A stretch of DNA of 62,847 bases, counting the filler, from Stramenopiles sp. TOSAG23-3 (Eukaryota): assembly GCA_900128585.1 (NCBI GenBank). It is 41 parts of 41 records of this genome, joined end to end, with 100 filler letters (N's around TTAATTAATTAA, not from the genome) between each part and the next. Parts side by side here need not be neighbours in the genome. Positions count along the whole stretch, not along the records: positions 53,826 to 55,246 come from LT645874.1; 40 more parts are not named here. One strand, given 5' to 3'. Below, one piece after another: positions 644 through 62,847 of the stretch. The notes under the pieces were generated by a model. That model searched no databases. It had not been told where the DNA came from and worked only from the letters and a program-made list of their open reading frames with translations. Each line of letters begins with the position of its first letter. The first letter of the stretch is position 1. Made by a program: the position numbers and the translations under genes.

Positions 644-714
644 ACAAGATAAGTCTTTAAGATTAGAACGAAGCGCTCCCGAAGCCGGCAGACGGTTCTT
701 AATTCCGATCTTAC

Positions 715-792
715 AAACAAAAAATTGGCTGTTATTTAAGTAATTAAAAAACAAATTAATTAATAATTAATGTACTGCGAACTGAACTCTAC
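715..792 (+). mobile_element. Dispersed element copy 1 (head plus ATTAATGTACTGCGAACTGA module)
   Basis: AAACAAAAAATTGGCTGTTATTTAAGTAATTAAA...ATTAATGTACTGCGAACTGAACTCTAC matches the copies at 6016, 12662 and 59686. Confidence 0.85.
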
Positions 793-3450: not shown

Positions 3451-5211
3451 CGGCTTTTTGGGAGAAGGGCCAGATTTATCAGAGCAATTCATTGTCAGTC
3501 CAGACGATGTTGTTTTCCCAAAACCACTGTCAATAGATCATTTTTTTAAGGACGTACAATCATAAACTATAGTAAAATTTATTATTTTAATCCCTGTGCT
3601 AAGCAATAAAGGCGTATATACATATATAATAGCCCCAAGAAATCCCAAAGACCGTTATCATCCTCTTGTGTACTCCATCGATATTCACTGCCGGTTCTTA
3701 CATTCCTTCGTTTGACTTCTTCTTCCCCACAGTCAACTTCTTCGTCCTCCCACACATGTCTGAAGTGGTTAATTGAACGGCGGTCTGTATTTCTTCTTTA
3801 AGGTGCTCGTTTTCTATTCGATGTATCCGTCAAGGTATGGCCAACAGAGGGCTCGGACCGTGCAGGAGTGTTGGTCGGGCCAGTCGTCAAAGCCGTCGAA
3901 GGCCAATCATGGTGTGGTGTAGGTGCGATGAGCGGTGGTGTAATTGTTTCCCCCGTTCCTGGTTCATTGTTTCGTTTGACCGACCTCTGTTGTGAGTATT
4001 CCTCTGTTCTTCGAAGATTGGCACGCATGATCTTCCTATTTCGTATGATTTTGATTAAAACATAAAAATATAAAGAGAGGCTGAATAGAAGCTGGCTGCA
4101 ATTTGAGCAGAATGTTCCTGGGGGAACTTGTATACAACACGGTCGCTCCTTGGACTCAGAATTTAACCATAACCGCAAAACAGCTTCAAAATGCTGCTGA
4201 TGGAATACACCATAGAGGCAGCTGTGAATTAGGCCAAGCCACCCGCAGCTGTTGCAAGAATGCGCAATGTCCAGTGGGAAGCGCGAAGGGGCGGGCGGAT
4301 CACAATTCCAATCGCGAACCAGAGGATGGACCCAAACACCCTCATCTCGTGGAAGCCAGCGTTGCGTAACGCGGCAAAAAACACGTCCTCGATTTCTATA
4401 CGGATTACAGCATGTAAAATATGTTTTGTTTTGTTTGCACGCCTTTTCTCACATCCCCGGTTGTATCGGTGTAGGGGGAGAAAACCCACCATATGGATTC
4501 CCAGACAATTTCGGTGATGGTGGTGGTGGTGGTGGGGGTGGGGGGGNNNNNNNNNNNNNNNNNNNNNNNNNNNNNNNNNNNNNNNNNNNNTTAATTAATT
4601 AANNNNNNNNNNNNNNNNNNNNNNNNNNNNNNNNNNNNNNNNNNNNAGTAGACGACAACAAACAAAAACGAGTAATAAGAAAACAGCAAGAAGATGGATG
4701 ATGAAAGAAAGACTAACTGAAGAAGACGACGATAATACACACTTTTATTATAGACTAATAAAAAGAAGAATCTCCCTCCTCTCTTCTAAAAAAAAAAAAA
4801 AATTTTTTTTAATAATTAAAATTATTAATTATTATTAATAATAAAATAGACGACTAATTATTATTGATTGAAGAAAAAAGTATTAACGACTAACTAACTA
4901 ACGAACTGACACTTTGTTTGCTTCGTAACATAATGCTTTGAATAAGAAGTGTAATTTTATATGTTTTTTGAAAACGATTATTGGGTAGTTGGAACAGTTT
5001 TATTCTCTGTATACGAATTGGTGTAGTGTTTATTATTTGTTGCCAATTCGAACGGACGTGGGGGAGAACAAGAAGAAGAACCGTCGTGTACTACAACGCG
5101 CCGTGGAACGGGAAGGGGAAAGGAAAGGGTTCTAGGGAACAACGCGGAAGGATTTTGTAGTCCGTGCGTGGGAAGTTTCATCGTCCATTTTTGAAAAATA
5201 TTGCGGGAAAA

Positions 5212-5976: not shown

Positions 5977-6015
5977 TTATTTAAAAAAAAACTAATGATA
6001 TATAGTATATATGTT

Positions 6016-6077
6016 AAAACAAGAAAATTGGCTGTTATTTAAGTAATTAAAATTAATGTACTGCGAACTGAAATCTA
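6016..6077 (+). mobile_element. Dispersed element copy 2
   Basis: AAAACAAGAAAATTGGCTGTTATTTAAGTAATTAAAATTAATGTACTGCGAACTGAAATCTA, 40 nt after the stop at 5976. Confidence 0.9.
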
Positions 6078-6568
6078 GATTTAGACATTCTANNNNNNNN
6101 NNNNNNNNNNNNNNNNNNNNNNNNNNNNNNNNNNNNTTAATTAATTAANNNNNNNNNNNNNNNNNNNNNNNNNNNNNNNNNNNNNNNNNNNNCACTCATA
6201 GGTGACTCAATCCTTGTGCGATTTTCCAAGCAGCGGCTTAATTGTTTTTGAGGTGCTCGTTGTCTGACTTGGAAATCGGTCAATAATAATTTAAACAATA
6301 ATAAAATATGGACAGAAGTATAGACGACTATAGACTATAAATAATATGAAGAAGAGAAATATAATAATATTATTATCTTTCTTTTTTTGTTGGTGAAGAA
6401 ATGCTATCATAATCTGCTCGCTTCTCCTTTCTCATCATTCATCACCATTTTTTTTTTAGATTTTATATAGAGGAGGATTTGCCTCATCTCTCCTACTCGT
6501 TTCAACCTGTTTTCTGATATGTTGTTTTTAAAAAGAGAACCTGTTAATTCCTTATATATTTATTTTGA

Positions 6569-12235: not shown

Positions 12236-12661
12236 CTAGACCTGACTTCTTCGCTGCTGGGGGGGGGGGGGGGGNNNNNNNNNNNNNNNNNNNNNNNNNN
12301 NNNNNNNNNNNNNNNNNNTTAATTAATTAANNNNNNNNNNNNNNNNNNNNNNNNNNNNNNNNNNNNNNNNNNNNGGCGGCGGAGGTAGTTTCCATGCGAG
12401 GGGGAGGGGAGGCCACTCCAGGAATTGGAGGTGACGCGGGATTGAATAGAAAAACGTGAAACGTGACGTGCGATACACTTCGCACAAGAACTTAAAAAAT
12501 GTTAAAACACACACTCATCCTGCTCATTTTTTGATTTGGAGAGTTTGTGTGGTGTAATTATAAGTAGAGAGTAAGACTTTTTTTTGACAAGAGATTTCAG
12601 CTCGTATGTTCGTGTATTCTTACGAAACTTTACTAAAAATTCGGAAGAGAGGTAAAGCTTT

Positions 12662-12728
12662 GTAGAGATCGGTTTGCAGTGTGTACATTTTAATTTTAAT
12701 TACTTAAACAACAGGCAATTTTTCGTTT
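12662..12728 (-). mobile_element. Dispersed element copy 3 (diverged)
   Basis: Reverse complement AAACGAAAAATTGCCTGTTGTTTAAGTAATTAAAATTAAAATGTACACACTGCAAACCGATCTCTAC. Confidence 0.8.
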
Positions 12729-12885
12729 CATTTAGCTTACAAAGTGTATCATAATTCTTCCAAATATCATCACCCTGATGAGAGTTTTAAAGCATTACTC
12801 TCTATAATATTAATTTGTTTTTTTACTATATAATTTTTTTCCCTTTTCATCACCCTTTGTGATTGAGGAATTAAACTCTCGTTTT

Positions 12886-17381: not shown

Positions 17382-17830
17382 TTACTTCTTTTTGTTCTCT
17401 TCCTCGCGCGGGCTTTGCACTAACCTCAAGAAGCACGCTCGGAACTCTTCGAAATCAATTGTTCCGCTTCCGTCTTTGTCGACTGTTGCAATGTATTGCT
17501 CGACTTCCTCCATGGACACTTCCGGCGCGTTCTGGTCTACCCGCTGCAACTCCTTCATGCAATTGAATACTTCTTCCTTGTCTAGTTCCTGGTCCCCGCT
17601 CTTATCGTATCGATTGAAGGAAACCCTCAGCAACTCGTCATTCCCCAGGAATGGTTTCAAATGCTTGCGTGCGTGCTCGCGCGATTCGTGCAGGCATTCG
17701 ATCTGTGTGGTCATTCCCTGCAACTTGCGGTCGAGCGTCCTCCCGTCCTTCTGTACAACGTGCACTTCTCTGGTCAAAGTGGCCAGCTTCATCTCGACCT
17801 GTTCTATTTCGATCGCATCGTTCATTTTCT
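17382..17830 (-). CDS. 3' half of a coiled-coil plus EF-hand protein (continues the CDS at 17846-18448 across an inversion)
   Basis: Two EF hands DKSGDQELDKEE and DKDGSGTIDFEEF; first 68 bp are the reverse complement of 18381-18448. Confidence 0.8.
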
Positions 17831-17845
17831 CTGTCTTGTACTATC

Positions 17846-18448
17846 ATGGCTGCCATACCGCAGGAGTTTGTTTACGATGAGCAGCAGTTGAGCGACAAAA
17901 TCGCAGAGTTGGAAGCTTCGCTGGAGCAGGAACGGGCGAAACGGGACAAAGTAGGCAGCAAGCTTGCAATTGCCCAAGAAAATTACGACCAGAGTGTGGA
18001 AGAGATGGAGGAAAACAAAGCAGACCTTCACCTGACCAATATCAGTGGCCTTGAAGGCAACCGGTCGGCTCGCCAAAAAACTTTAGATTTGTTGGAGTCC
18101 GACGACCTGTTCGCTCTTAGGGACCGTCTCTTGGAGCTGAAACTGTTAGACAAAGACTTGTCCACGAACATTAGCGATGCGAGGGTGAGCGCAGTGCACT
18201 GGAGAAAGGACGCCGAAGATCTAGAAAAAGTACTGGAAGAAAAGACAAACTCCATCAACGAGGTGCCCTCGCACGAAAGCGACAGTGTGCTGGAAGCGCA
18301 GACCAAGGCGTTGCGGGCGAAAGAGGAGCAGCGGAAGATGGAGTTGAAAATACAAGACCTTGAAGCAGAACTCAAGAAAAAGAAAATGAACGATGCGATC
18401 GAAATAGAACAGGTCGAGATGAAGCTGGCCACTTTGACCAGAGAAGTG
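17846..18448 (+). CDS. 5' half of the coiled-coil plus EF-hand protein
   Basis: ATG at 17846; heptad-rich; ends in the same MNDAIEIEQVEMKLATLTREV peptide. Confidence 0.8.

Positions 18449-21454: not shown

Positions 21455-21455
<1 letters not shown>

Positions 21456-21529
<74 letters not shown>
21456..21529. repeat. (AAAG)n microsatellite
   Basis: Perfect tetranucleotide run. Confidence 0.95.
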
Positions 21530-21530
<1 letters not shown>

Positions 21531-25196: not shown

Positions 25197-25372
25197 TTTT
25201 CTTTTCTTCTTTCTTCTACCTTCCTTCTTCTTCCTTCCTTCTTCTTCTTTCTTTCTTTCTTCTTTTCTTTCTTCTTTCTTCTTCTTCTTTCTTTCTTTCT
25301 TCTTTTCTTTTCTTTTCTTTTCTTTCTTCTTTCTTCTTCTTCTTTCTTTCTTCTTTTCTTTTCTTTTTTTTT
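25197..25372. repeat. Pyrimidine (TTC/TTTC) low-complexity tract
   Basis: Almost purely C/T. Confidence 0.9.
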
Positions 25373-27693: not shown

Positions 27694-28504
27694 NNNNNNN
27701 NNNNNNNNNNNNNNNNNNNNNNNNNNNNNNNNNNNNNTTAATTAATTAANNNNNNNNNNNNNNNNNNNNNNNNNNNNNNNNNNNNNNNNNNNNGTTTGTT
27801 CGTTCGTTTGTTGCCTTGAGTTTATTAATTTATTTATTTACCGCGCCGCAAAAGGAAGAAAAAAGGCGGGCGTTCGTGTTGGTTGGCGAATGGGTCGTGT
27901 GCCGTAACCCCCTTCCACCGTCTGTCTCTTGTTGAAAAGAGAGAGAGTGGGAGAAAGGCGTTGAGGGTGGTGAATGAATGCCAAAGTGTTGTGTGGCAGG
28001 TGAAAAACGAGTTAAACAATCACCCACGAATGGTATAAACTTGTAATTTCTGTGTATCTTTGTTTCTTTCTGTTTCTTTGTTGAACTAAAACTAAAAAAC
28101 TAAAAACGTGTAGTCAATAAATAAATCCTACGTTTTTTAAAATAATAATAATAATTATATAAGAATAGAAGAAGAAAACAAACAACAACATAATAACCCT
28201 CTTCTTATAATAATATAAATTAAAAGATCATCATCCCATCTTCTGCTTCTTCTTCTTCTTCTCTCATCGGTTATATAATTATAATTATTATTATTGAAAA
28301 TTATAATTAATTAAAATATTTAGTTATATTTCCATTCTATTTCTATATATTATTAATTAAATATTAATTAATTGATTGAAGAAGAAAGAAGAAGAAAGAG
28401 AAAGAAAGAAAGAGAAGAAGAAGAAAGAAAGAAAGAACGTTCTTTGTTTTTTGTTTTTTGTTTTTTGTTTTGTATTATAAAATATCCTTAATTATATTAA
28501 TACC

Positions 28505-28716
28505 TTAAATAAAAAGAAAAGAAAAGGAATGACCTTCGCGAAGGAAAAGAAAAGAAGAAAAGGAAAAGAAGAAAAGAAAAGAAGAAAAGAAGAAAGAGTA
28601 TTTCTTTCTTTCTCTCTTCTCTTCTCTCTTCTTTCTTTCTTTCTTTCTTCTCTTCTCGCTTTTCTCTTCTCTCTTCTCTCTTCTCTTCTTCTCTTCTCTC
28701 TTCTCTTCTCTCTTCC
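28505..28716. repeat. Purine tract followed by pyrimidine tract (GA/TC microsatellite)
   Basis: AAG/AAAAG-rich then TTC/TCTC-rich. Confidence 0.85.
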
Positions 28717-29332
28717 ACAAATTAATTAAAATATACGTTTCATTCTTCCTATTCCTATTTCAATACTATTCTATTCTATTCTATGCTTGAATCCTTCTTC
28801 TCTTTTTCTTTCTTTCTTTTTCTTTCAATTCTTCGCACTTTTCTCTTTTTAAGAATAAATATAATTTATATAATATAGGAATAAGGAAGGAATAATAAAT
28901 AAACATATCTCAATCACTTCTTCCTCCTTCTCTTCTTCTTCTTCTTCTTCTTCTTCCTTCTTTCTTCTTCTTCCTTCTTCCTTCTCTTCTTCTTCTTCCT
29001 TCTTCTTTCTTCTTCCTTCTCTTCTTTCTTCTTTCTTCTTTCCTATTCTAAGAACCACACATCTCATTCATTCTCATTCATTCATTCATTCTCATTCCAT
29101 CATTATTTATTATAATACTATGATCATGTATTTATAATAATAATAAATATCACATCTCATTCATTCATTCATTCATTCTTTCTTCTTTTCTTGTTTATTT
29201 ACCACTACCAAACAAACGAAACAACACCCGTCNNNNNNNNNNNNNNNNNNNNNNNNNNNNNNNNNNNNNNNNNNNNTTAATTAATTAANNNNNNNNNNNN
29301 NNNNNNNNNNNNNNNNNNNNNNNNNNNNNNNN

Positions 29333-29411
29333 TTTACTAATCGATATACCCTTGTCACTTGGTCTTGGCTATCAATCTCAGATGGACTCCATGCACGATC
29401 CGAATCGGTAG
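29333..29411 (+). mobile_element. 79-bp element core, copy A
   Basis: 74 of 79 nt identical to 39500-39578. Confidence 0.9.
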
Positions 29412-37673: not shown

Positions 37674-37865
37674 AGCGTGGGAGAAAGAAATTTAAACACA
37701 CCAGGCAAGTTATCTCTTGCGTTATTCTTCAATTTGGTGTCGTGTAAATGTGGTTGTTCTACTGTAATGGGCCCTGTTAAATTGGATCATTGGCTAGTGT
37801 TTGGGAAAGTACCTCCTCCACTCAATAAACATTTACGCGTGTTAAGAAATTTATTAAAACACTCT

Positions 37866-37890
37866 AATAACAGCCAATTTTCTTGTTTTT
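37866..37890 (-). mobile_element. Dispersed element copy 4 with target-site duplication
   Basis: AATAACAGCCAATTTTCTTGTTTTT flanked by TTTATTAAAACACTCT at 37850-37865 and 37888-37903. Confidence 0.9.
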
Positions 37891-37904
37891 ATTAAAACAC
37901 TCTT

Positions 37905-38437
37905 TCATTTACCAAACCGCTTCTCCATGGCGGCCAACCGGGCGGCCCTCATTTCTTCCCTGGACTTCGCTTTGGATCCGCCGCCCAACGTGTTCGAGGT
38001 GGCCATCACCTGCCTCCGGGGTTTCTCGTTTACGACAGAGCTGCCACTTCCAAACTTTCCGCCTTGGTTTTGCTTGTTTGCTTGATACCGTTGGGACGCC
38101 GCGCTCGTGGCCCCCCCCATGGTGTTCACGACACCTTTCATTTGCCCGTACGACTGTGGCTCTTTTCGAAGACCTTTCATTTTTCCACCAGTGCTGCGGA
38201 CACTTTTCGTGCGACCGGCGACGCCGGTCTTTATGTTCGACCTCCGCTTCTGGTCGCCGTGAATGGGGTTCCCACCAAGGTCGCACGCTCCCGCGCCTCG
38301 GCGGTTGAATTTAGGGTTTCGCGCCAGCTTCTTTCGGTTGGGGTTTGCCATTTTCGTCGAAACGGTGTGGATGGTGGTGCCGCCCTGGCGGACCGCCTTG
38401 GTCGTGATCATCGAGCCTTTGTCGTTTTTGAAGGCCG
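37905..38437 (-). CDS. Basic G/K/R-rich hypothetical protein, 5'-partial
   Basis: Ends LGGG...REEMRAARLAAMEKRFGK. Confidence 0.7.
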
Positions 38438-38648: not shown

Positions 38649-39440
38649 GAAATCGCTTTTGCCCGTCTTTTGTAGCTTTTGTAGTACATGTCTTAAAACT
38701 CTTAGAGTGATATATTTAGAGCAAATTGGTTGAGGGATGGACGAATCACTCACTGCTCAAAATCTTGTTCGATGTAGCCCTTTGGCGCAAGCCTTGCACT
38801 ACATGTATTCGACCGACCAACGTTTCTATAGAACCGACCGATCACCCGTGTACACACAAATTCAAAAGCATCAAATTTCATCATCAGCCGTTTCAAACAC
38901 CAAATTTACACATATCATACGCCAGACGCGCCAGACTCATATGATACACATTATTTTTCAAACTTCGCAGTAAACCAAATTGAAAAAAGAAAAAAAAACA
39001 CCTAGTCTGCCGCTTATCGTGCCCACGGCCACGAAATTAAAAGCAAGCAGGACGTTCGGCGTTCACTTGTTAATAGCTACGTACGAAGTACGTACATTTT
39101 CATTTTACCTAAGATGCTCTTACTCTAAGATCTCTACATCTTGAAATATCATATCTTCTCGCTTTTCATTTCGTTCGCATGCGATGCAACTCTGTGAAAA
39201 GATAAAGATACACCTTCCAACCAAATATAGTCACAGCATTCAATAAAAACATTTTTTCTATCTCTCTCGCCGCCACCACATGAAGAAGAAGAAAGAGAGA
39301 TCTTTATTTTTATAATTTTTCTTCTTCTCTTCTTCTTCTTCTTTTCTTCTTCTTTTCTTCTTCTTTTCTTCTTCTTTTTTCTCTCGTTTCTATTTTTTCT
39401 TCTTCTTCCTCCTCTTTTAAAAAAAAAAAAAAAAAAAAAA

Positions 39441-39578
39441 AGAAAATTGGCTGTTATTTTATATAGATAGAAATTAAAACTTGTCTTTGCTCTTGTGGTT
39501 TTACTAATCGATATACCCTTTTCACTTAGTCTTGGCTATCAATCGGAGATGGACTCCATGCACAATCCGAATCGGTAG
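39441..39578 (+). mobile_element. Dispersed element copy 5: head joined to the 79-bp core (copy B)
   Basis: A-run, then AGAAAATTGGCTGTTATTT, then the core matching 29333-29411. Confidence 0.85.
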
Positions 39579-40069
39579 CTTCCTTTTTTTTCAATCAAGT
39601 TTTCACCTTTTACAAGTAGTCACGTCACGAATACTCGTCGTTCGTACTTGCCAGTTTGTACGATTACACGGTCAAAACATTCAGGTTTTATGTTGTGTCA
39701 CAAAGTAGAAATAGTAATTATCAAGAGATCACCTGGAACAGCGGACTATGCCGTCAAAGTTGAAGACCTCGCTGGCAGTTGTAGCCTCGGCGACTTCCCT
39801 GTATTTGGCGTTGGAGAAGCTGTCAAAGTATGACTTAAAATGGAACGGAAAATTTTTGCTGCTAAAGACCATTTTTATAACGTTGTTGAAAGGGGGGCTC
39901 AGAAAAATATGGCGCCTTATTGATAAACTCTTTCTCTCATCAATAATGTACTCCAAAGAACAGCTTTTTNNNNNNNNNNNNNNNNNNNNNNNNNNNNNNN
40001 NNNNNNNNNNNNNTTAATTAATTAANNNNNNNNNNNNNNNNNNNNNNNNNNNNNNNNNNNNNNNNNNNN

Positions 40070-40528: not shown

Positions 40529-40752
40529 TGGATGGAAATATCTGAAGTATGATACAGGTAATAGACGAAGTTAAAAAGAAGACTCTAGAAAGAACAAACT
40601 TGGCAGCGAAATCTTACCAAAGCGGGGGGTATATTTTAAGAATAGAAGAGTGTTAGAATATTTTATCACAATATGGGAAGAACGAAGATGATCTTAATTT
40701 TAAATTAATGTACTTTATAAATAACAGAGCCAATGTTCTTGAGTTCAATAAA

Positions 40753-40795
40753 AAAACAAGAAAATTGGCTGTTATTTAAGTAATTAAATTTAGCT
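40753..40795 (+). mobile_element. Dispersed element copy 6 (TTTAGCT variant), with a degenerate inverted copy at 40718-40741
   Basis: AAAACAAGAAAATTGGCTGTTATTTAAGTAATTAAATTTAGCT, identical to 62771-62813. Confidence 0.9.
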
Positions 40796-41601
40796 ATATC
40801 TTTGTCCTCATATTATTCTTGTCACCCGAAGAAGTGATTACTCGCAGGAGTCTCCAAAGAGGGGCGAAACTTTCAGGAACTTTGACTGGGAGAAGAATCG
40901 GTTTGTTGAATACATATCACCCTCCATAAAAATAAAAAAACATTATTACTTTCGAAAGCAATCTTAAGATTTCGAAGAATCAATGACTGAATAATAAAAT
41001 TTCTCGCCGAACCCTAACCCTAACCTAACCTGAATTGGGATTCTTCTAGCGGTATATAATAGTAATAGTCTCCTATATAATCCCTAATATAGTATGCATT
41101 TGTTGTATAGTCCGAATACATCATGGTAAGCGAAGTCTGATTACTCTGTGACATGACAAGAGCAAATTTTATAAAAATAAAGCTTTAATATAAATAATAT
41201 GTTCCAAATTGAATAATTAATGAAATTTGAATATAATAGCAGATAGCATAGAGTTTAAGAATTTTTAAAAATGTTTCTTACCTTCAATTATACTAATATT
41301 TATACAAGTACATTATCATTTCTATATAATATAATAGAACAGACTACCTCCATTCTTTTCTTTTCTTTCAATTTATTAGCTGGACAAAATAAGTCATTAT
41401 TAAGGATATATTCTTTCAGTATTATATATGTTGTGTGTATATAAATATATATATTTTATCCCTTTTTTTTAATTCTATTTAGTTATGATTATGATTAATA
41501 TNNNNNNNNNNNNNNNNNNNNNNNNNNNNNNNNNNNNNNNNNNNNTTAATTAATTAANNNNNNNNNNNNNNNNNNNNNNNNNNNNNNNNNNNNNNNNNNN
41601 N

Positions 41602-43032: not shown

Positions 43033-43372
43033 NNNNNNNNNNNNNNNNNNNNNNNNNNNNNNNNNNNNNNNNNNNNTTAATTAATTAANNNNNNNNNNNN
43101 NNNNNNNNNNNNNNNNNNNNNNNNNNNNNNNNTGACGATGCAACAGCACCGGCACTTCCTGCCTTGCGCACGCAGACCTGCGATTTACCGCCGTGGCCAT
43201 GTCGTACTGCAGGTCCGTTTTAACCATCGCCTCCCCACAACTCGCCCCACCTGTCGTTCCAATTGGTCCAACTGCTTTGGCAGATCAAATGTTATTGTTC
43301 GTCTTCTTTTTTGATTGTTCTGTACGCATGTTTTTTTTGCGCTTCATCCTGTCGGAAAACAATTAAAAGAAA

Positions 43373-44563
43373 ATGATCAAAACTATTGTTGTGACACTTG
43401 CGGCCATTGCGTTCGTCGCCAATGGCGAATCGAATCTTCGATCCAACACCGCCGCTGAAGTCGAAGGGAATCGTTGCAAGAGATCGGATCTCTCCAAGGA
43501 CAAAAATTTGCTCAACAATTACTGCCGGGACCGCACATATCTCTGGAACAATCAATACTGTATGTTGAAATGCCCAGATAACAGCAAAGTCAAGGTCAAG
43601 TGCAAAGGATCCCAATGGGAGCCACAGCGTTGCGCTCCCACCGCTCCCAGCGCTCCCACGGGAGACAAATTTTACGCAGTCATGGGCAAGATTTCAGGGC
43701 GCAAGAAGCCACTGGCACCCGCTATCGGCGTGCACTGCCTCAGTCGCGGCACGACAAAAGCCACGGAAGCCCCGTACAACAACAAAATTTGGGGCCAAAA
43801 GCATGGTGCGTTGTCCGTGCAATGCTGTGGCGCAGAGAACTTCCGTTCCAACACCGACAACAATAAAAAGTGGGTGGTCAAGGAACAGCAGGGCGTTTTT
43901 GCCACCCGCTTCACTCGCAACGTTGTCCCGGGCGGTCAGTGGAATCTGGACGCCTGTAAGAGTGGTAAGACTTTCGACGAGGCATTTGATATTTGTGCGA
44001 AGAATGGTCTCCGTCTGTGTACCAAGGACGAAGTGATGGCGAACGAGCAAAACGTAGGCTGCAATACAGGTTCAAACTTGCAGTGGACTGGCACACCATG
44101 CGACGGAGCAGTCGGTGGAACCCCGAATAAGGACGTCTCGAAGGAACTCAATGAAATTCGTGACCAGTTCAAAAATCTCATCGCCGCAGAGGAACCGGCG
44201 ACCAAAGAGGAGGAGCAAAGGGATGATAAATTTGAGTGCACCACAGACAAGAACTTCATCATAGGCAGCTACAGCCAAATCGAGGTGGTCCTTAACGGCC
44301 AGCCGAGTCGCAAAATTTTCGATGAATACGAAGCAGTAGCGTTCTGCAGAAACGAGTGCGACAAGAGAGAGGCATCCGGAGAAGGCTGCAAAGCCTTTTG
44401 GTACCAGCGCCACAGACCAAATCCAAACGAACGTCGTGGAACCCACGGGTACAAAGTGTGTGCTTTTTACAAGAAAAACGGACGTGCAGTACGACATGGC
44501 CACGGCGGTAAATCGCAGGTCTGCGTGCGCAAGGCAGGAAGTGCCGGTGCTGTTGCATCGTCA
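43373..44563 (+). CDS. Secreted multi-domain Cys-rich protein with a PAN/apple-like module (3'-partial)
   Basis: Signal peptide; KTFDEAFDICAKNGLRLCT module; C...C...GCKAFWY...C PAN-like pattern. Confidence 0.75.
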
Positions 44564-44746: not shown

Positions 44747-46039
44747 TTAAACAATGGTACAAGAACGACAGCACACACTGACACCATGAATCTTTGTGCT
44801 TTTTGGTAGTGAACGAAGGGGGCTCGTGTCCACGATTGGATTTCTATCGAGGTAGAGATTCCAGAGATTAACGAGCGTTGCCAGTGGTGCCACGTCCACT
44901 ATTTTATTGTCTTGGAGGCGGAGCCACCTGAGATTAACGAGCGTTGCCAGTGGTGCCACGTCCACGATTTGATTGTCCTGGAGGTCGAGCGACGTGAGAT
45001 TAACGAGCGTTGCCAGTGGTGCCACGTCCACGATTTGATTTCTACCGAGGTCGAGCCGCGTGAGATTAACGAGCGTTGCCAGTGGTGCCACGTCCTGGAT
45101 TTTATTATTATCGAGCCCGAGCCCCGTGAGATTAACGAGCGATGCCAGTGGTCCCACGTCCACGATTTGATTACTATAGAGCCAGAGCTCCGTGAGTTCC
45201 TTACCGAGCGTTGTCAAGTCCTCTGATATTCGATGATTCCGAACTATCTGGCATCGAATTGGATACAGCGTTAGTGGTGTCACGTCCACGATTTTATTGT
45301 TACAGAGGTCGAGCCGACTCGAGTGTGGCGGTGTGAAGCGCCAGAGCCACTTGAGATTAACGAACGTTGCCAGTGGTGCCACGTTCGCGATGTGATTATA
45401 TTGGAGCTTGAGCTCCCTGAGATCAACGAGCGTTGCCAGTGGTGCCACGTCCACGATTTTATTAAACCTGAGGTCGAGCGTGGTGAGATGAACGAGCCCT
45501 GCCAGTGGTGCCACGTCCTGGATTTTATTTTTATCGAGCCTGAGCTGCGTGAGATGAACGAGCCCTCCCAGTGGTGCCACGTTCACGATTTGATTGTTAC
45601 AGAGCCAGAGCGTCTTGAGATTAACGAGCGTTGCCAGTGGCGTCACGTCCACGATTTTATTTCCATAGAGGTAGAGCGTCTTGAGATTAACGAGCGGTGC
45701 CAGTGGTCCCACGTCCGCGATTTTAGTATGCTTGAGGTTGAGCTTCTTCACCTTCAGCAGGTCCTTTCCCACCATCTCACGGAGCTCCGCCTCGGCGATG
45801 TCCAGATTGAAAAAACAAGTTTGACATGCCCTATGTCTCCACTCTTGGCATGTCTCCATAAGCTTCTTGATTATAGGACCATACTGTGGAAACTTTCTGA
45901 TGAACGTCTCCTCACCGTCGTGATGAAAAATGACCATCGCTTCAAACAACGTGTCGTTGGTTAGGTTGACTGAAACATCCTTCGCAGCAGCAGCAGCACC
46001 AGAGCTTCCCCCCCCGCATGCTTTCGTCAACTCCGTCAT
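44747..46039 (-). CDS. Internalin/SDS22-type LRR protein with C-terminal CaaX
   Basis: About 14 repeats of LxxLxLxxN(K/Q)IVDVAPLATLVN (66-bp units); ends CCRSCTIV. Confidence 0.92.
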   Translation of the reverse strand: MTELTKACGGGSSGAAAAAKDVSVNLTNDTLFEAMVIFHHDGEETFIRKFPQYGPIIKKLMETCQEWRHRACQTCFFNLDIAEAELREMVGKDLLKVKKLNLKHTKIADVGPLAPLVNLKTLYLYGNKIVDVTPLATLVNLKTLWLCNNQIVNVAPLGGLVHLTQLRLDKNKIQDVAPLAGLVHLTTLDLRFNKIVDVAPLATLVDLRELKLQYNHIANVAPLATFVNLKWLWRFTPPHSSRLDLCNNKIVDVTPLTLYPIRCQIVRNHRISEDLTTLGKELTELWLYSNQIVDVGPLASLVNLTGLGLDNNKIQDVAPLATLVNLTRLDLGRNQIVDVAPLATLVNLTSLDLQDNQIVDVAPLATLVNLRWLRLQDNKIVDVAPLATLVNLWNLYLDRNPIVDTSPLRSLPKSTKIHGVSVCCRSCTIV

Positions 46040-47078
46040 CGTGCATGCCGACGAAGCGTAAAAAAATATCTGTAAAAATGCTTCGTTTGAAGAANNNNNN
46101 NNNNNNNNNNNNNNNNNNNNNNNNNNNNNNNNNNNNNNTTAATTAATTAANNNNNNNNNNNNNNNNNNNNNNNNNNNNNNNNNNNNNNNNNNNNATCCTA
46201 TGGGATGCCCTGGTCGTCGTCGACCCGGCAGAGTTCGTGTAGAGCCGGCGAAAGAAGAAAGGGCGTGTACATATATAGAAGCAAGGAGAAGCAAGCGGGG
46301 GCGGCGGTTAAATCGGTATCGGTCACTGCTCGGCGTTTAGTGGACCATCTGTGGTGGCAGGACCAGGAACTGATGGGGAAGGGTCGAACGGTTCAACAGA
46401 TTCGCAATTTCAGAGAAAGCAGGTTGGGTCTTTCGACGGACTAGGGTCGTTTTCTGTTCAATACTATCATTCAAGGTAGGATATAATCTAAATAGAACGA
46501 TTTTTAATAGTATAGTAGTAGGATCATCATGTATAATAATAATATTAATAATAATTTAAACTATTTCCTGTATGTACTACTCTTCTATAATACCTACCGT
46601 ACCGTAGTGGTCTGACGGTGGTGGGGTATTATTTAATGTACACTCTTCCTGTATAAAAATGTTGTGTATTATTGTCAGTTTTGCTCCTATCGGTACAGCA
46701 GGTACGGTACAGGTATTAATATTAATACGAACAATGGAGCAAACTTCGCGTAGGAGATCTTAAGCTAAGGTAACATTTAACTATGAGTCATGTGTTCTTC
46801 ATTCTTCTCGCTCCATCGTACCAAGGTATCTCTTCTTTCTTCTTTCTTCTTCTCTTGCTTCTCTCTGCTGATTATTGTTTTTGATTTTGATTTTGATTTT
46901 TGTTTATTGGTATATATATTATAATTATACCCGTCTCCCAAAGGCAATGAAAAAATTTCATCTATGAGTAGTTCGTAATGAAAATTCAATCGGTAGACAC
47001 CACAGTTTAAATTATAAGACGTTTGCAGTTTGCGTCATTAGTATAAATATTCATCGAAGCACTGCTTAAAACTCGAAT

Positions 47079-48368: not shown

Positions 48369-48995
48369 GACTGGGGTGGTGGACGAACGGTGGCGTTTGA
48401 AATGAACGAAAGGAATGTGGGTGGAAAGAAAGAAAGAGTGGCAGAAACTCTTGCGTTGGAAATGTACACGCAAACAATCGCTGCTTTTTTCTTCTACTAA
48501 CGTGTTAAAAAGTACGGCAGGTAGAGAAGGGTTGAGATTTCGTGTTTTTCTTTCTTCTAAGTGTGTGTGTGTTTATTACAAGGAAAGGAAACTAAGTGTG
48601 TACAATAATTATTTACATCAAAGAAGTTCTTCTTCTTCGTTCGTACGTGTAGTAGTAGTGTAGTAGTATAAAGTAGAAATAGCACTCACTGAATTTAAGA
48701 AATAATTGTTTAAGTATATAAATCATAACTATTTTGACTAAGATAAACATAGCAGTGAATATTTTATTTTCATCCGTAACTGTCATTGTGAAGAAAAAAA
48801 AGAAGAAGAGGAAGAAGAAGAATGAAGAAGAAAAGAAAATGTCAATCCAATCAAAGAAGAAGTTGAATTATATATAATACTATACATTACATACCAAAGA
48901 CCAGGGACCAAATAATCCACCTATTATCTTAATTATACTTAAACTAGCATTTCGTATTGTCTTCCCTATCTTGAAAATAGAGCAGAATCATCATA

Positions 48996-49089
48996 AAAGA
49001 AAGAAAGAAAGAGTCGAAAGAAAGAAAGAGTCGAAAGAAAGAAAGAGTCGAAAGAAAGAAAGAGTCGAAAAAAAGAAAGAAAGAGTCGA

Positions 49090-49149
<60 letters not shown>

Positions 49150-49150
49150 A
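48996..49150. repeat. (AAAG)n microsatellite with AGTCG interruptions
   Basis: Direct inspection. Confidence 0.9.
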
Positions 49151-53483: not shown

Positions 53484-54055
53484 CCCTGTTTTCAATAAAT
53501 TCTGATGTTGGTCTGTGTATTTGTTAATAATTGAAGTAGTCTTGAATTCACGGTGTAATTTCTGTGAATTTTTCGTTTCTTTTTTAAGAATCAATTGTTT
53601 TACAAACGAAATGTCATATTGACTCTACTACCTCGTATATATTATTAGAAAGTATTGTGTTGTAAATAATAATCTTCTTCTACTATTTTTTTTATTATTA
53701 ATAATAGATCTAATATTTTATTATTNNNNNNNNNNNNNNNNNNNNNNNNNNNNNNNNNNNNNNNNNNNNTTAATTAATTAANNNNNNNNNNNNNNNNNNN
53801 NNNNNNNNNNNNNNNNNNNNNNNNNCTTGGCAAAGGCTCTCTTTGTCTATGTGCATTTTAGGTGTGACAGCCTGACATGGCTTTTTCGTTAAGAGCTGCA
53901 TTCTACGCACCAGTGCAAGAGCAGAATCATTTAAAAATGAAACATCATGACGATGATTATATTATTAAACGTAGATAATAGAAGATTTTCAAGTATTATT
54001 ATTGTTCTTTCTTGTTTTGTGCTGGGTCAGTCGAAAGATTTTAGCAAACGCAAAG

Positions 54056-54628
54056 ATGTGCTCTACACAGGCTAGTCTGTTCCTGCTGAATTACGAAGAA
54101 AAGGTTTTCCGTAGAATCAAAAGACGGAAACATGAGGAAAAATCGAAAGCGGCTACAATGATACAAAAGTACACTCGCCGCTTCTTAGAATTGACACGAT
54201 TCAAACGAATATGCTTTCACATACTCAGGCTCCAGTGCATATGTCGCGGGAGGCATGGTCGATTGGAGGCTCGGCGGCGGCGCCTTCTCTTGGAACGCAA
54301 GCGGGAAAAGCTGGAAAAGTTCAGCAAGAGAAACAATAATCCAACAGGCGAGTTTGGTTATGGAAACGTCTCTGCTGTTCTCCGGGATGCATACATGGCG
54401 GTATGCAACGAGGGGAAATATTCTTGGCAGGAGAAGAATGTCCCCATGTGGAAGTGCTTGAGTTGTTCGTTTGAAAACGAATCCAACTCTACCCGTTGTG
54501 AATTGTGCTTGAGGAAACCATCCGTATCTAACAAATTGTTACAGCTCGGACGACTAGCTGTGCAAAGAACCTTTCAGCCCAAAAAAAGCAAAAAAGCAGT
54601 TGTCAAGAGACACACATTTTTTGGGTGA
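54056..54628 (+). CDS. IQ-motif plus RanBP2-type zinc finger protein
   Basis: AATMIQKYTRR, LQCICRG, WKCLSCSFEN...CELC. Confidence 0.75.
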   Translation: MCSTQASLFLLNYEEKVFRRIKRRKHEEKSKAATMIQKYTRRFLELTRFKRICFHILRLQCICRGRHGRLEARRRRLLLERKREKLEKFSKRNNNPTGEFGYGNVSAVLRDAYMAVCNEGKYSWQEKNVPMWKCLSCSFENESNSTRCELCLRKPSVSNKLLQLGRLAVQRTFQPKKSKKAVVKRHTFFG

Positions 54629-54647
54629 ACTAAAAATGTGTAGCCTT

Positions 54648-54675
54648 AAAAACAAGAAAATTGGCTGTTATTTGT
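54648..54675 (+). mobile_element. Dispersed element copy 7 with 11-bp target-site duplication
   Basis: TGTGTAGCCTT at 54637-54647 and 54676-54686. Confidence 0.92.
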
Positions 54676-54833
54676 TGTGTAGCCTTTATTTTATTTTTAA
54701 GAGTAGGTATTCTGGAACAAAAAGGAGTTTTGGTTCTTGAATGGTTTACCTTCTTTTTTTTTGAGCGTCTTAAAGCATACTCTATATGTTTTAGTATAAT
54801 TTTTTTTATGAAGTAAGTTAGGAATTCTTTTCG

Positions 54834-55246
54834 CTACTGTTCAGGGGGCTTTTTCAAGCCTACGTCAGACAAAAGCCTGTCGCCATGGTTCAAAATTTTC
54901 TTCGCCCCTGCAATTTTTGGAGTGTCTGGCGCGTCGATGGGGGGCAGTGTCAATAGCGCCTGCTTGGCCCTATTGGCCACTGTTTGAGGGCTTGCAGCAA
55001 CACCTTGCTTGCCTATCGCGGTGTCAATTTCAATAGAGACTTGGCGCCGTTGGCCCAAATCCCCCCGTTTAGGGGATGGGGTGGTCGTTGGGCCAAAGCT
55101 CAAAGGAGACCGCCGCCGACCACCAGATCCTGGGGAAGACCCTGGTGATTTTGAACCTGGGGAGAATCCCATGGGGCTTAGTTTATCATTAAAAGACTTG
55201 TTTCGTTTCAGCGGTGACGGGGTTTTCTCTCCATGACTTGGTCTAG
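54834..55246 (-). CDS. S/P-rich C-terminal fragment
   Basis: Open to the contig edge; SP-rich. Confidence 0.6.
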
Positions 55247-62658: not shown

Positions 62659-62770
62659 ATGCTGACGGTAGTAGAGTCGTCTACTGACTACTCGTCGTAA
62701 TTAAATCCGAATACAAGTACACAAGTTCGCTAATTATAATTGCGTTTGCAAGAGAGTATTATTACACATT

Positions 62771-62813
62771 AAAACAAGAAAATTGGCTGTTATTTAAGTA
62801 ATTAAATTTAGCT
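62771..62813 (+). mobile_element. Dispersed element copy 10 (TTTAGCT variant)
   Basis: 43-nt exact match to 40753-40795; 113 nt after the Mpv17 stop. Confidence 0.9.
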
Positions 62814-62847
62814 TCGTCGTACCCTAATCCTAACTTGGTTCTGTAAT

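Follow-up and report, generated by a model that had tools for sequence, protein, structure and literature searches.

A 28-nucleotide insert between 11-nucleotide repeats behind a stramenopile gene is probably the truncated tail of an abundant mobile-element family

A 28-nt segment located just behind a protein-coding gene of Stramenopiles sp. TOSAG23-3 probably derives from the 3' tail of a high-copy repeat family of retroelement-like character, as a copy that was severely truncated at its 5' end and inserted by target-primed synthesis. On the + strand, positions 54637-54686 read TGTGTAGCCTT, then the 28 nt AAAAACAAGAAAATTGGCTGTTATTTGT, then TGTGTAGCCTT again. All positions refer to the window, by which we mean the whole stretch of DNA that was analysed (62,847 nucleotides, filler included). 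The insertion of DNA at this site is well supported, whereas an RNA intermediate, the nick order, and the origin of a reverse transcriptase (RT) are inferred.

The first-pass annotation had described an 11-bp duplication around a 28-nt motif copy lying 20 nt past a stop codon, and this description is exact in sequence. The 11-mer TGTGTAGCCTT is unique to these two places, with exactly two occurrences in the window and none elsewhere in the 903,366 nt that comprise the window and the fetched loci. The count of the 11-mer alone is not significant (at least two matches with up to one mismatch occur in 18 of 100 shuffles). An anchored repeat of at least 11 nt at the fixed end of the motif arises by chance in a mean of 1.87 of 133 flank-swapped pairs among the matches listed. 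The insert itself is highly repeated. The 28-mer has six window matches with up to three mismatches (expected 0), and its 19-nt core AAGAAAATTGGCTGTTATT has seven (expected 0.09), in addition to a diverged eighth copy.

Matching to about 100 other copies in the window and fetched loci, among the matches listed, starts at 54646-54649 and stops at 54673. Because similarity stops there, we assign 26 nt of the 28-nt insert to the element (A5 followed by CAAGAAAATTGGCTGTTATTT on the + strand). The two bases that follow, GT, are either filler or microhomology with the subsequent TGTGT, or else junction sequence. The upstream ORF (53975..54628, + strand) has its stop codon at 54626-54628, and the 28-mer begins 20 nt past this stop. 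Its label as an IQ/RanBP2 gene is reasonable but weak because both Pfam matches are below threshold (Zn_ribbon_RanBP, E 0.0025; IQ, E 0.13). The remainder of the 205-nt spacer between this ORF and its convergent neighbor is also repeat-derived. This second family, at 54700-54795, ends in ...TGAGCGTCTTAAAGCATACTCTATATGTTTT on the + strand and shows a depth of 12-110 versus ~4 in the flanks. Among the matches listed, 26 of its relatives occur in the fetched loci, and they end in TTTGTTTTTT, resembling the tail of the first family.

Coordinates of the insertion at 54637-54686 and of other family copies in the window
Feature	Position	Strand	Basis
Target-site duplication, left copy, 11 nt TGTGTAGCCTT	54637..54647	+	exact match, window search
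Element-derived insert, 26 nt, probable extreme 3' tail of the repeat family	54648..54673	- (element sense)	copy similarity, boundary logo, ORF orientation
GT at the variable (5') junction; matches neither family nor duplication	54674..54675	.	sequence; in the family, TTATT is followed by consensus T A A G T
Target-site duplication, right copy, 11 nt TGTGTAGCCTT	54676..54686	+	exact match, window search
Second tail-only copy; 22-nt insert AATAACAGCCAATTTTCTTGTT at 37866-37887 between perfect 16-nt repeats TTTATTAAAACACTCT	37850..37903	+ (element sense)	sequence
Longer copy, ~80 nt, core with 2 mismatches	712..791	-	sequence similarity
Long copy across N masks; tail 6014-6092, body match resumes at 6193-6283	6014..6283	-	sequence similarity
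Diverged eighth copy, similarity at 12683-12728	12661..12731	+ (element sense)	sequence similarity
Internally deleted variant after a 23-A run; body matches the long subfamily	39419..39585	-	sequence similarity
Tail-to-tail pair: diverged copy 40700-40743 (sense +), 46-nt copy 40750-40795 (sense -)	40700..40795	.	sequence similarity
Member of the second 3'-UTR subfamily, cut off at the window end	62769..62847	-	sequence similarity
Element-body fragment, 93.7% identical to 39500-39578; tail would lie under the N mask 29289-29332	29333..29411	.	sequence similarity

Metagenome contigs were scanned for the 19-mer core, which yielded at least 120 loci. Together with the window, these loci provide at least 154 exact-core copies in at least 150 distinct contexts. 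A few copies that lack the A-run and are seemingly unrelated (for example, L060/L081, L084, L099/L054, and L104) were kept in all counts. The motif is the fixed end (A4-5 followed by CAAGAAAATTGGCTGTTATT) of repeats whose other end varies from ~22 to ~530 nt away. A sequence logo of 142 copies among the matches listed has C at position -1 in 93% and A at positions -2 to -5 in 82-89%; the A-run is mostly 4 or 5 nt long, and the two or three bases ahead of it are T-rich (50-60%). On the variable side of the same logo, conservation fades gradually. No common terminus was found at the variable end of the aligned longest copies, and none of the ~150 copies among the matches listed reaches farther than ~530 nt from the tail. 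The family therefore shows a fixed 3' end with variable 5' truncation, as non-LTR retrotransposons do.

The second non-LTR feature, duplication of the target site to variable lengths, was assessed by counting exact flanking repeats whose left copy ends no more than 8 nt from the core. The 133 distinct copies from the window and loci were compared with 300 flank swaps. Among the matches listed, repeats of at least 10 nt are present in 31 of the 133 copies (control mean 3.8, maximum 9), of at least 11 nt in 22 (control mean 1.9, maximum 7), and of at least 12 nt in 11 (control 0.9). Because anchored repeats exceed the flank-swapped controls, target-site duplication of variable length is a property of the whole family. 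Repeat lengths among the matches listed range from 8 to 16 nt, and this spread is the pattern of nick-primed insertion, not of a transposase. Inspection by eye also revealed that long copies have their own flanking repeats (12 nt in L037, 11 nt in L068, and 15 nt in L028). The duplication of many copies terminates in A residues.

Two subfamilies are distinguished by an internal segment of ~100-140 nt, beyond which the body is the same, and a further repeat type (D) has only the tail in common with the family. One locus (L029) carries a nested insertion, in which a ~21-nt inverted tail with a 4-6-nt duplication sits inside another copy. The many uninterrupted copies of the same subfamily serve as empty sites for this nested insertion. 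Clustering is common, with about one-fifth of copies among the matches listed having another copy within 100 nt. For 136 copies, again among the matches listed, the neighbors are 13 direct downstream, 9 direct upstream, 6 tail-to-tail, and 4 head-to-head. On the minus strand of L022 (~4297-4324), three successive target copies (…CTACCTCTTAAA…) are separated by two tail copies, which looks like repeated insertion at one site. No RNA structure that might be used as a recognition signal was predicted for the tail (z-scores of 0.02 to 1.32 in four folds).

The second tail-only copy, whose 16-nt repeats TTTATTAAAACACTCT occupy 37850-37865 and 37888-37903, lies directly past the stop codon (37905-37907) of a minus-strand ORF. 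The short copies at 54648 and 37866 have one end in common (A-run, C, AAGAAAATTGG...), whereas their opposite ends are not alike. Positions 40753-40795 are identical to 62771-62813. The inverted pair at 40700-40795 could be read as the terminal inverted repeats of a MITE, a reading we reject since such pairs are tail-to-tail neighbors (6 of 136) and not element ends. At 39419-39441, 23 A residues replace the usual A4-5-C before the core, and this run follows a long CTT-rich tract (39316-39418). A telomere-like interstitial run, AACCCTAACCCTAACCTAACC, is present at 41010-41031 and again in a copy body at 62815-62835, and one element subfamily carries CCCTAATCCTAAC ~50 nt from its tail.

The body of the repeat, on the strand opposite the motif, ends in an ORF whose stop codon is ~105 nt before the tail (L023:1400-1825, 141 aa). 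Because the ORF lies on the opposite strand, we take the motif to mark the 3' end of the element's sense strand, which ends ...CCAATTTTCTTG followed by T4-5. The two subfamilies converge on this same ORF, and therefore they are UTR variants of one element and not SINEs. The L023 ORF piece matches a 776-aa protein (P0002, from a cluster of 116 members) and three others, and an exhaustive HMMER scan of 1.84 billion representatives recovered 265 mostly short fragments. A search of all loci with P0002 and P0005 using tblastn returned only fragments and a frameshifted divergent copy in L056. The protein reaching furthest toward the N terminus, P0155 (851 aa), has the same start Met as P0081, and thus the ~850-aa ORF may be complete without an RT. 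One 419-aa protein, P0077, joins an N-terminal part resembling FAE1/type III polyketide synthase (Pfam E 4.9e-80) to ~90 residues of the element ORF, which reflects either insertion of the element at the end of a gene or a fusion produced in gene calling.

Conserved in the protein family are a CxC...HxxxC motif, then Q-[AP]-D-G and W-D-V-H-F, and ~250-370 residues follow the nuclease domain. There is moderate support for classifying this putative domain as an RLE-type nuclease. AlphaFold modeled P0002 poorly overall (mean pLDDT of 51.5) but well at residues ~350-600. Neither Foldseek against the PDB (no match at E 0.001 or better) nor a PDB sequence-profile search (no match) identified a relative. 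A second structural comparison, using VIA, places proteins of R2 retrotransposons in its first six rows (Z 6.2-7.4, 198-220 residues aligned), and residues 243-605 of the low-confidence P0002 model align to the R2 thumb-to-endonuclease region. The next rows contain the Prp8 endonuclease-like domain and viral cap-snatching nucleases (Z 5.4-6.1). We also compared a model of the domain (P0004 first, mean pLDDT of 60.4) with 48,161 representative chains, without Foldseek. Only endonuclease regions of R2 match it over the whole domain (Z 6.5, 142 residues aligned, rmsd 3.4; Z 6.0, 131 residues aligned, rmsd 3.0), and the remaining top rows hold helical hairpins 50-80 residues long. All of the structural Z scores for R2 proteins are below 8, which is a middling range.

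A Pfam search found an RT domain in none of eight proteins (P0002, P0005, P0008, P0023, P0077, P0081, P0090, and P0155). Searches for longer proteins yielded only P0155 and no RT-bearing form, and a viral_contigs scan likewise gave none. These results bear on a rival explanation in which an RT-less element, whose protein consists of the Cys/His motif and the nuclease, moves as DNA, perhaps by one-ended or abortive copying that sets out from a fixed end, and leaves tails with duplicated flanks. Such a route accords with the two longest ORFs (776 and 851 aa), both without an RT domain, and with the start shared by two relatives. However, the contigs behind the proteins, including those for the longest ORFs, are shorter than 3 kb, and thus an upstream RT could be missing from view. 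The ESM Atlas offers only weak leads, at a score of 0.84, to clusters in which 15% of the members have RVT_1 and 17% have zf-RVT. Furthermore, the element lacks terminal inverted repeats, its duplications are not fixed in length (8-16 nt), its copies form a continuous truncation series from one end only, and the best structural relatives of its nuclease are retrotransposon proteins. We consider movement as DNA unlikely on the short contigs available.

Among known systems, R2-type elements provide the closest comparison. RLE (R2-type) non-LTR elements are said to combine a precise 3' boundary with a variable 5' boundary and with duplications of 0 to 20 bp, and to be mostly target-specific (PMC4640811). 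The family described here shares with the R2, NeSL, R4, CRE, Hero, and Utopia clades a Cys/His motif followed by what appears to be a PD-(D/E)xK-type nuclease near the C terminus of the ORF. It also shares with them a precise 3' end, variable 5' ends, duplications of variable length, and the absence of poly(A). In contrast to these clades, its available ORFs carry no RT domain and have ~250-370 residues past the nuclease domain, and its copies are dispersed in AT-rich gene 3' flanks (~1000-2600 copy-equivalents) rather than in rDNA, snRNA genes, or microsatellites. Site-specific insertion of the latter kind was not found in the at least 150 distinct contexts, which share only the T-rich/A-run junction preference and the bias toward gene 3' flanks. 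Overall, the family works like a 5'-truncated non-LTR insertion, and the closest resemblance of its protein is to the C-terminal part of R2-type elements. A place in the R2 clade is not established, as no RT domain was seen and the copies are not site-specific.

L1-type 5'-truncated insertions have 7-20-bp target-site duplications at TT|AAAA-like sites. The present family is like them in its variable-length duplications, T-then-A primed junction, heavy 5' truncation, and nested or tandem insertions, but its tail is U-rich and not poly(A), its nuclease appears RLE-like and not APE-like, and tail-only copies of 22-30 nt are common. SINE and LINE families can share a 3' tail (“stringent” recognition), and similarly the subfamilies with different 3'-UTR segments and type D end in the same 25-35 nt. 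Unlike in SINEs, no head derived from tRNA, 5S, or 7SL was found in the family, nor was a defined 5' end, as the 5' ends of the aligned copies are all different. ARAGORN found no tRNA genes in the window, and Rfam gave no window match at the gathering score and none in six loci at E values up to 1. In being short, non-coding, and very abundant, and in populating a compact genome, the copies are reminiscent of MITEs and of introner-type DNA transposons of marine protists. However, the aligned long copies lack inverted termini, one end is variable, and duplication lengths are not fixed (8-16 nt), which rules out a MITE or other cut-and-paste DNA transposon, and none of the aligned copies behaves as an intron. 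Helitrons insert between A and T without target-site duplication, and they are ruled out by the presence of duplications.

Our preferred reading, target-primed insertion of a truncated tail, suggests the following sequence of events at 54637-54686. The element's sense strand would correspond to the minus strand of the window, which gives the element's transcript a 3' terminus of ...CCAAUUUUCUUG plus 4-5 U. An element-encoded nuclease would nick the + strand after ...GCCTT at an AT-rich site behind the gene. The freed 3' end could then prime copying of the element RNA from its U-ended terminus, which would place A5-CAAGAAAATTGGCTGTTATTT on the + strand, and copying would arrest after ~26 nt. 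The cDNA would be joined to the other side with two extra unmatched bases (GT), and a second nick in the other strand, 11 nt upstream, together with fill-in, would generate the 11-nt duplication. Those duplications that end in A's suggest that an A-rich primer can pair with the U-tail. The primer at 54637-54686 cannot do so because it ends in TT. The U-rich rather than A-rich tail counts against target-primed insertion since it is unusual for elements favoring TT|AAAA-like sites. Also weighing against this reading are the lack of an RT domain, the middling structural matches, and the absence of an empty allele, of any copy longer than ~530 nt, and of tail RNA structure. The first-pass proposal of very early abortive reverse transcription is right in substance, as the insert is probably a very short copy of a longer element with one fixed and one variable end, and this element carries an ORF with an apparently R2-like nuclease domain. 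In naming reverse transcription itself, the proposal goes further than the evidence: no RT domain was found in the eight proteins.

The very short insert and the two unmatched bases at one junction also suit a different origin, in which a double-strand break behind the gene was filled with abundant RNA, cDNA, or DNA of the element, and the 11-nt repeat arose by fill-in of staggered ends. Of the 31 copies that have repeats of at least 10 nt among the matches listed, about 12, as judged by eye, have inserts of no more than 30 nt, as such patches might. However, random capture would start anywhere, whereas the copies always begin at one and the same end of the element (position -1 is C in 93% of 142, among the matches listed), and the T-rich target preference beside this fixed end also disfavors repair. 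We regard a repair patch as quite unlikely.

Distances to genes were measured using stop-to-stop ORFs as gene proxies (at least 200 aa for counts within 300 nt, at least 150 aa for counts within 1000 nt). Gene 3' ends that face the motif from no more than 300 nt away number 139 among the matches listed, compared to only 5 gene 5' ends. The stop-facing ORFs comprise 83 on the same strand and 56 on the opposite strand, and those facing with their 5' ends comprise 4 and 1, respectively (same set). Seven copies among the matches listed lie inside long ORFs. With ORFs of at least 150 aa and a limit of 1000 nt, the matches listed include 59 copies in convergent context, 22 in tandem context (17 antisense and 5 sense), and 6 in divergent context; adjacent ORF pairs in the same loci, among the matches listed, number 101 convergent, 144 tandem, and 53 divergent. 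All window copies are sense to the upstream gene. An orientation bias is ruled out by the larger set, in which 92 copies are sense and 91 antisense to a gene within 1000 nt (among the matches listed), and thus the all-sense pattern in the window is due to chance. The element inserts into, or survives only in, gene 3' flanks without a preferred orientation.

This concentration behind genes (139 versus 5), together with the RNA-library contig that covers the site, is what might be anticipated if the motif were a functional 3'-end or regulatory element that evolved or was conserved in place, with the flanking repeat arising by slippage or chance. The equal orientations (92 versus 91) and the motif-to-stop distances of 3-277 nt, both among the matches listed, are at odds with this idea, and they rule out a conserved 3'-end processing signal in particular. 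Moreover, the motif is the end of longer, ORF-carrying repeats, and the excess of flanking repeats is family-wide. Slippage would double a contiguous unit and not 11 nt across a foreign 28-mer. A functional motif that arose in place is thus largely refuted and in our judgment very improbable. The earlier claim that the motif was actively inserted rather than evolved in place can be retained regarding inserted DNA, given the family-wide anchored repeats, the 16-nt case, and the nesting in L029, whereas “actively” goes beyond the evidence, as the site is filled in four of four runs.

At least half of the sampled words from positions 53826-55246 are present in 14 sequencing runs, of which 11 are labeled marine or seawater metagenomes, 1 is labeled organism A, and 2 have no label. 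Contigs from four runs of four studies (X16, X9, X12, and X14) were compared over this stretch. A DNA contig from X12 (54395-54761) crosses both 11-mers and the insert with one other letter and no gap, and a contig from the oligo-dT RNA library X16 (54547-54760) likewise crosses both 11-mers and the insert. Those of X9 and X14 come in from the left flank and end inside the motif. The filled form of the site is real and is the main form in these four runs. That the insert is transcribed is only hinted at by the X16 contig.

An assembly artefact is scarcely conceivable: the motif is highly repeated, short-read graphs break there, and the X9 and X14 contigs end inside it, but those contigs do run into the motif from the left flank, and the independent X12 and X16 contigs span the whole arrangement, which is not a misassembly. 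The empty form anticipated by the first-pass annotation, a single TGTGTAGCCTT without the insert, did not appear. At the contig level, at which rare variants are dropped, none of the four runs (X16, X9, X12, and X14) has the 39-nt skip at 54637-54686 that would mark an empty allele. One contig that joins 54669 to 54759, with 24 letters on the shorter side, fits a different locus of this repeat and is rejected as an allele of the site. Among the fetched loci, no empty alleles were found, and left flanks that recur in a second contig carry the motif in 12 of 12 allelic matches among the matches listed. Three “no motif” flank matches proved to be repeats and not alleles.

Read depth reflects the abundance of the family. 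Summed depth at 54642-54689 is 11,145 (X9), 7,806 (X12), and 3,181 (X14), and neighboring unique bins have depths of ~4.3, ~4.1, and ~3.1, respectively. Copy-equivalents of the motif come to ~1000-2600 in these three marine metagenomes, with other organisms included.

The window has additional features that we record here. Pfam matches for 10 window ORFs are to ordinary eukaryotic domains, and one ORF is enoyl-CoA hydratase/isomerase-like. Tandem repeats with a 66-nt period (77-86% identity) occupy 44828-45748 inside a long minus-strand ORF (44747..46138). Two near-identical inverted pairs, 17763-17838 versus 18373-18448 (97%) and 43133-43221 versus 44475-44563 (98.9%), have arms that end beside N masks. 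Such masks occur as pairs of 44 N's, 12 nt apart, every ~1.54 kb (80 runs, 3,520 N), and they hide parts of several copies. Purine/pyrimidine-rich low-complexity tracts of the CTT/GAA type at 21455-21530, 25198-25372, 28378-29050, 39316-39418, and 48995-49150 cross-match on both strands.

Four short strings of the motif, in either orientation, are absent from ~8.4 million papers and preprints, and the element family seems undescribed. The mechanism class, 5'-truncated nick-primed insertion with target duplication, is textbook. The family could represent an RLE-nuclease element of a new kind. Its ~850-aa ORF would be truly RT-less, and it would spread via a 25-nt U-ended tail using an RT in trans or another copying route. 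It would reside in the 3' flank of about one-fifth of the genes of an abundant marine protist, where the 22-30-nt tails might be kept for acting on transcript 3' ends. We offer this picture as speculation that is improbable.

The recurring 19-28-nt motif is a mobile-element tail, so masking or repeat annotation is appropriate and a reading of it as a regulatory signal is not. The family is very abundant in a marine planktonic eukaryote. In addition to an R2-like nuclease, as the structural models suggest, it is characterized by a tail rich in U, by insertions that are dispersed and confined to gene 3' flanks, and by unusually many tail-only copies. Population studies in metagenomes gain hundreds of dated insertion markers from these tail-only copies.
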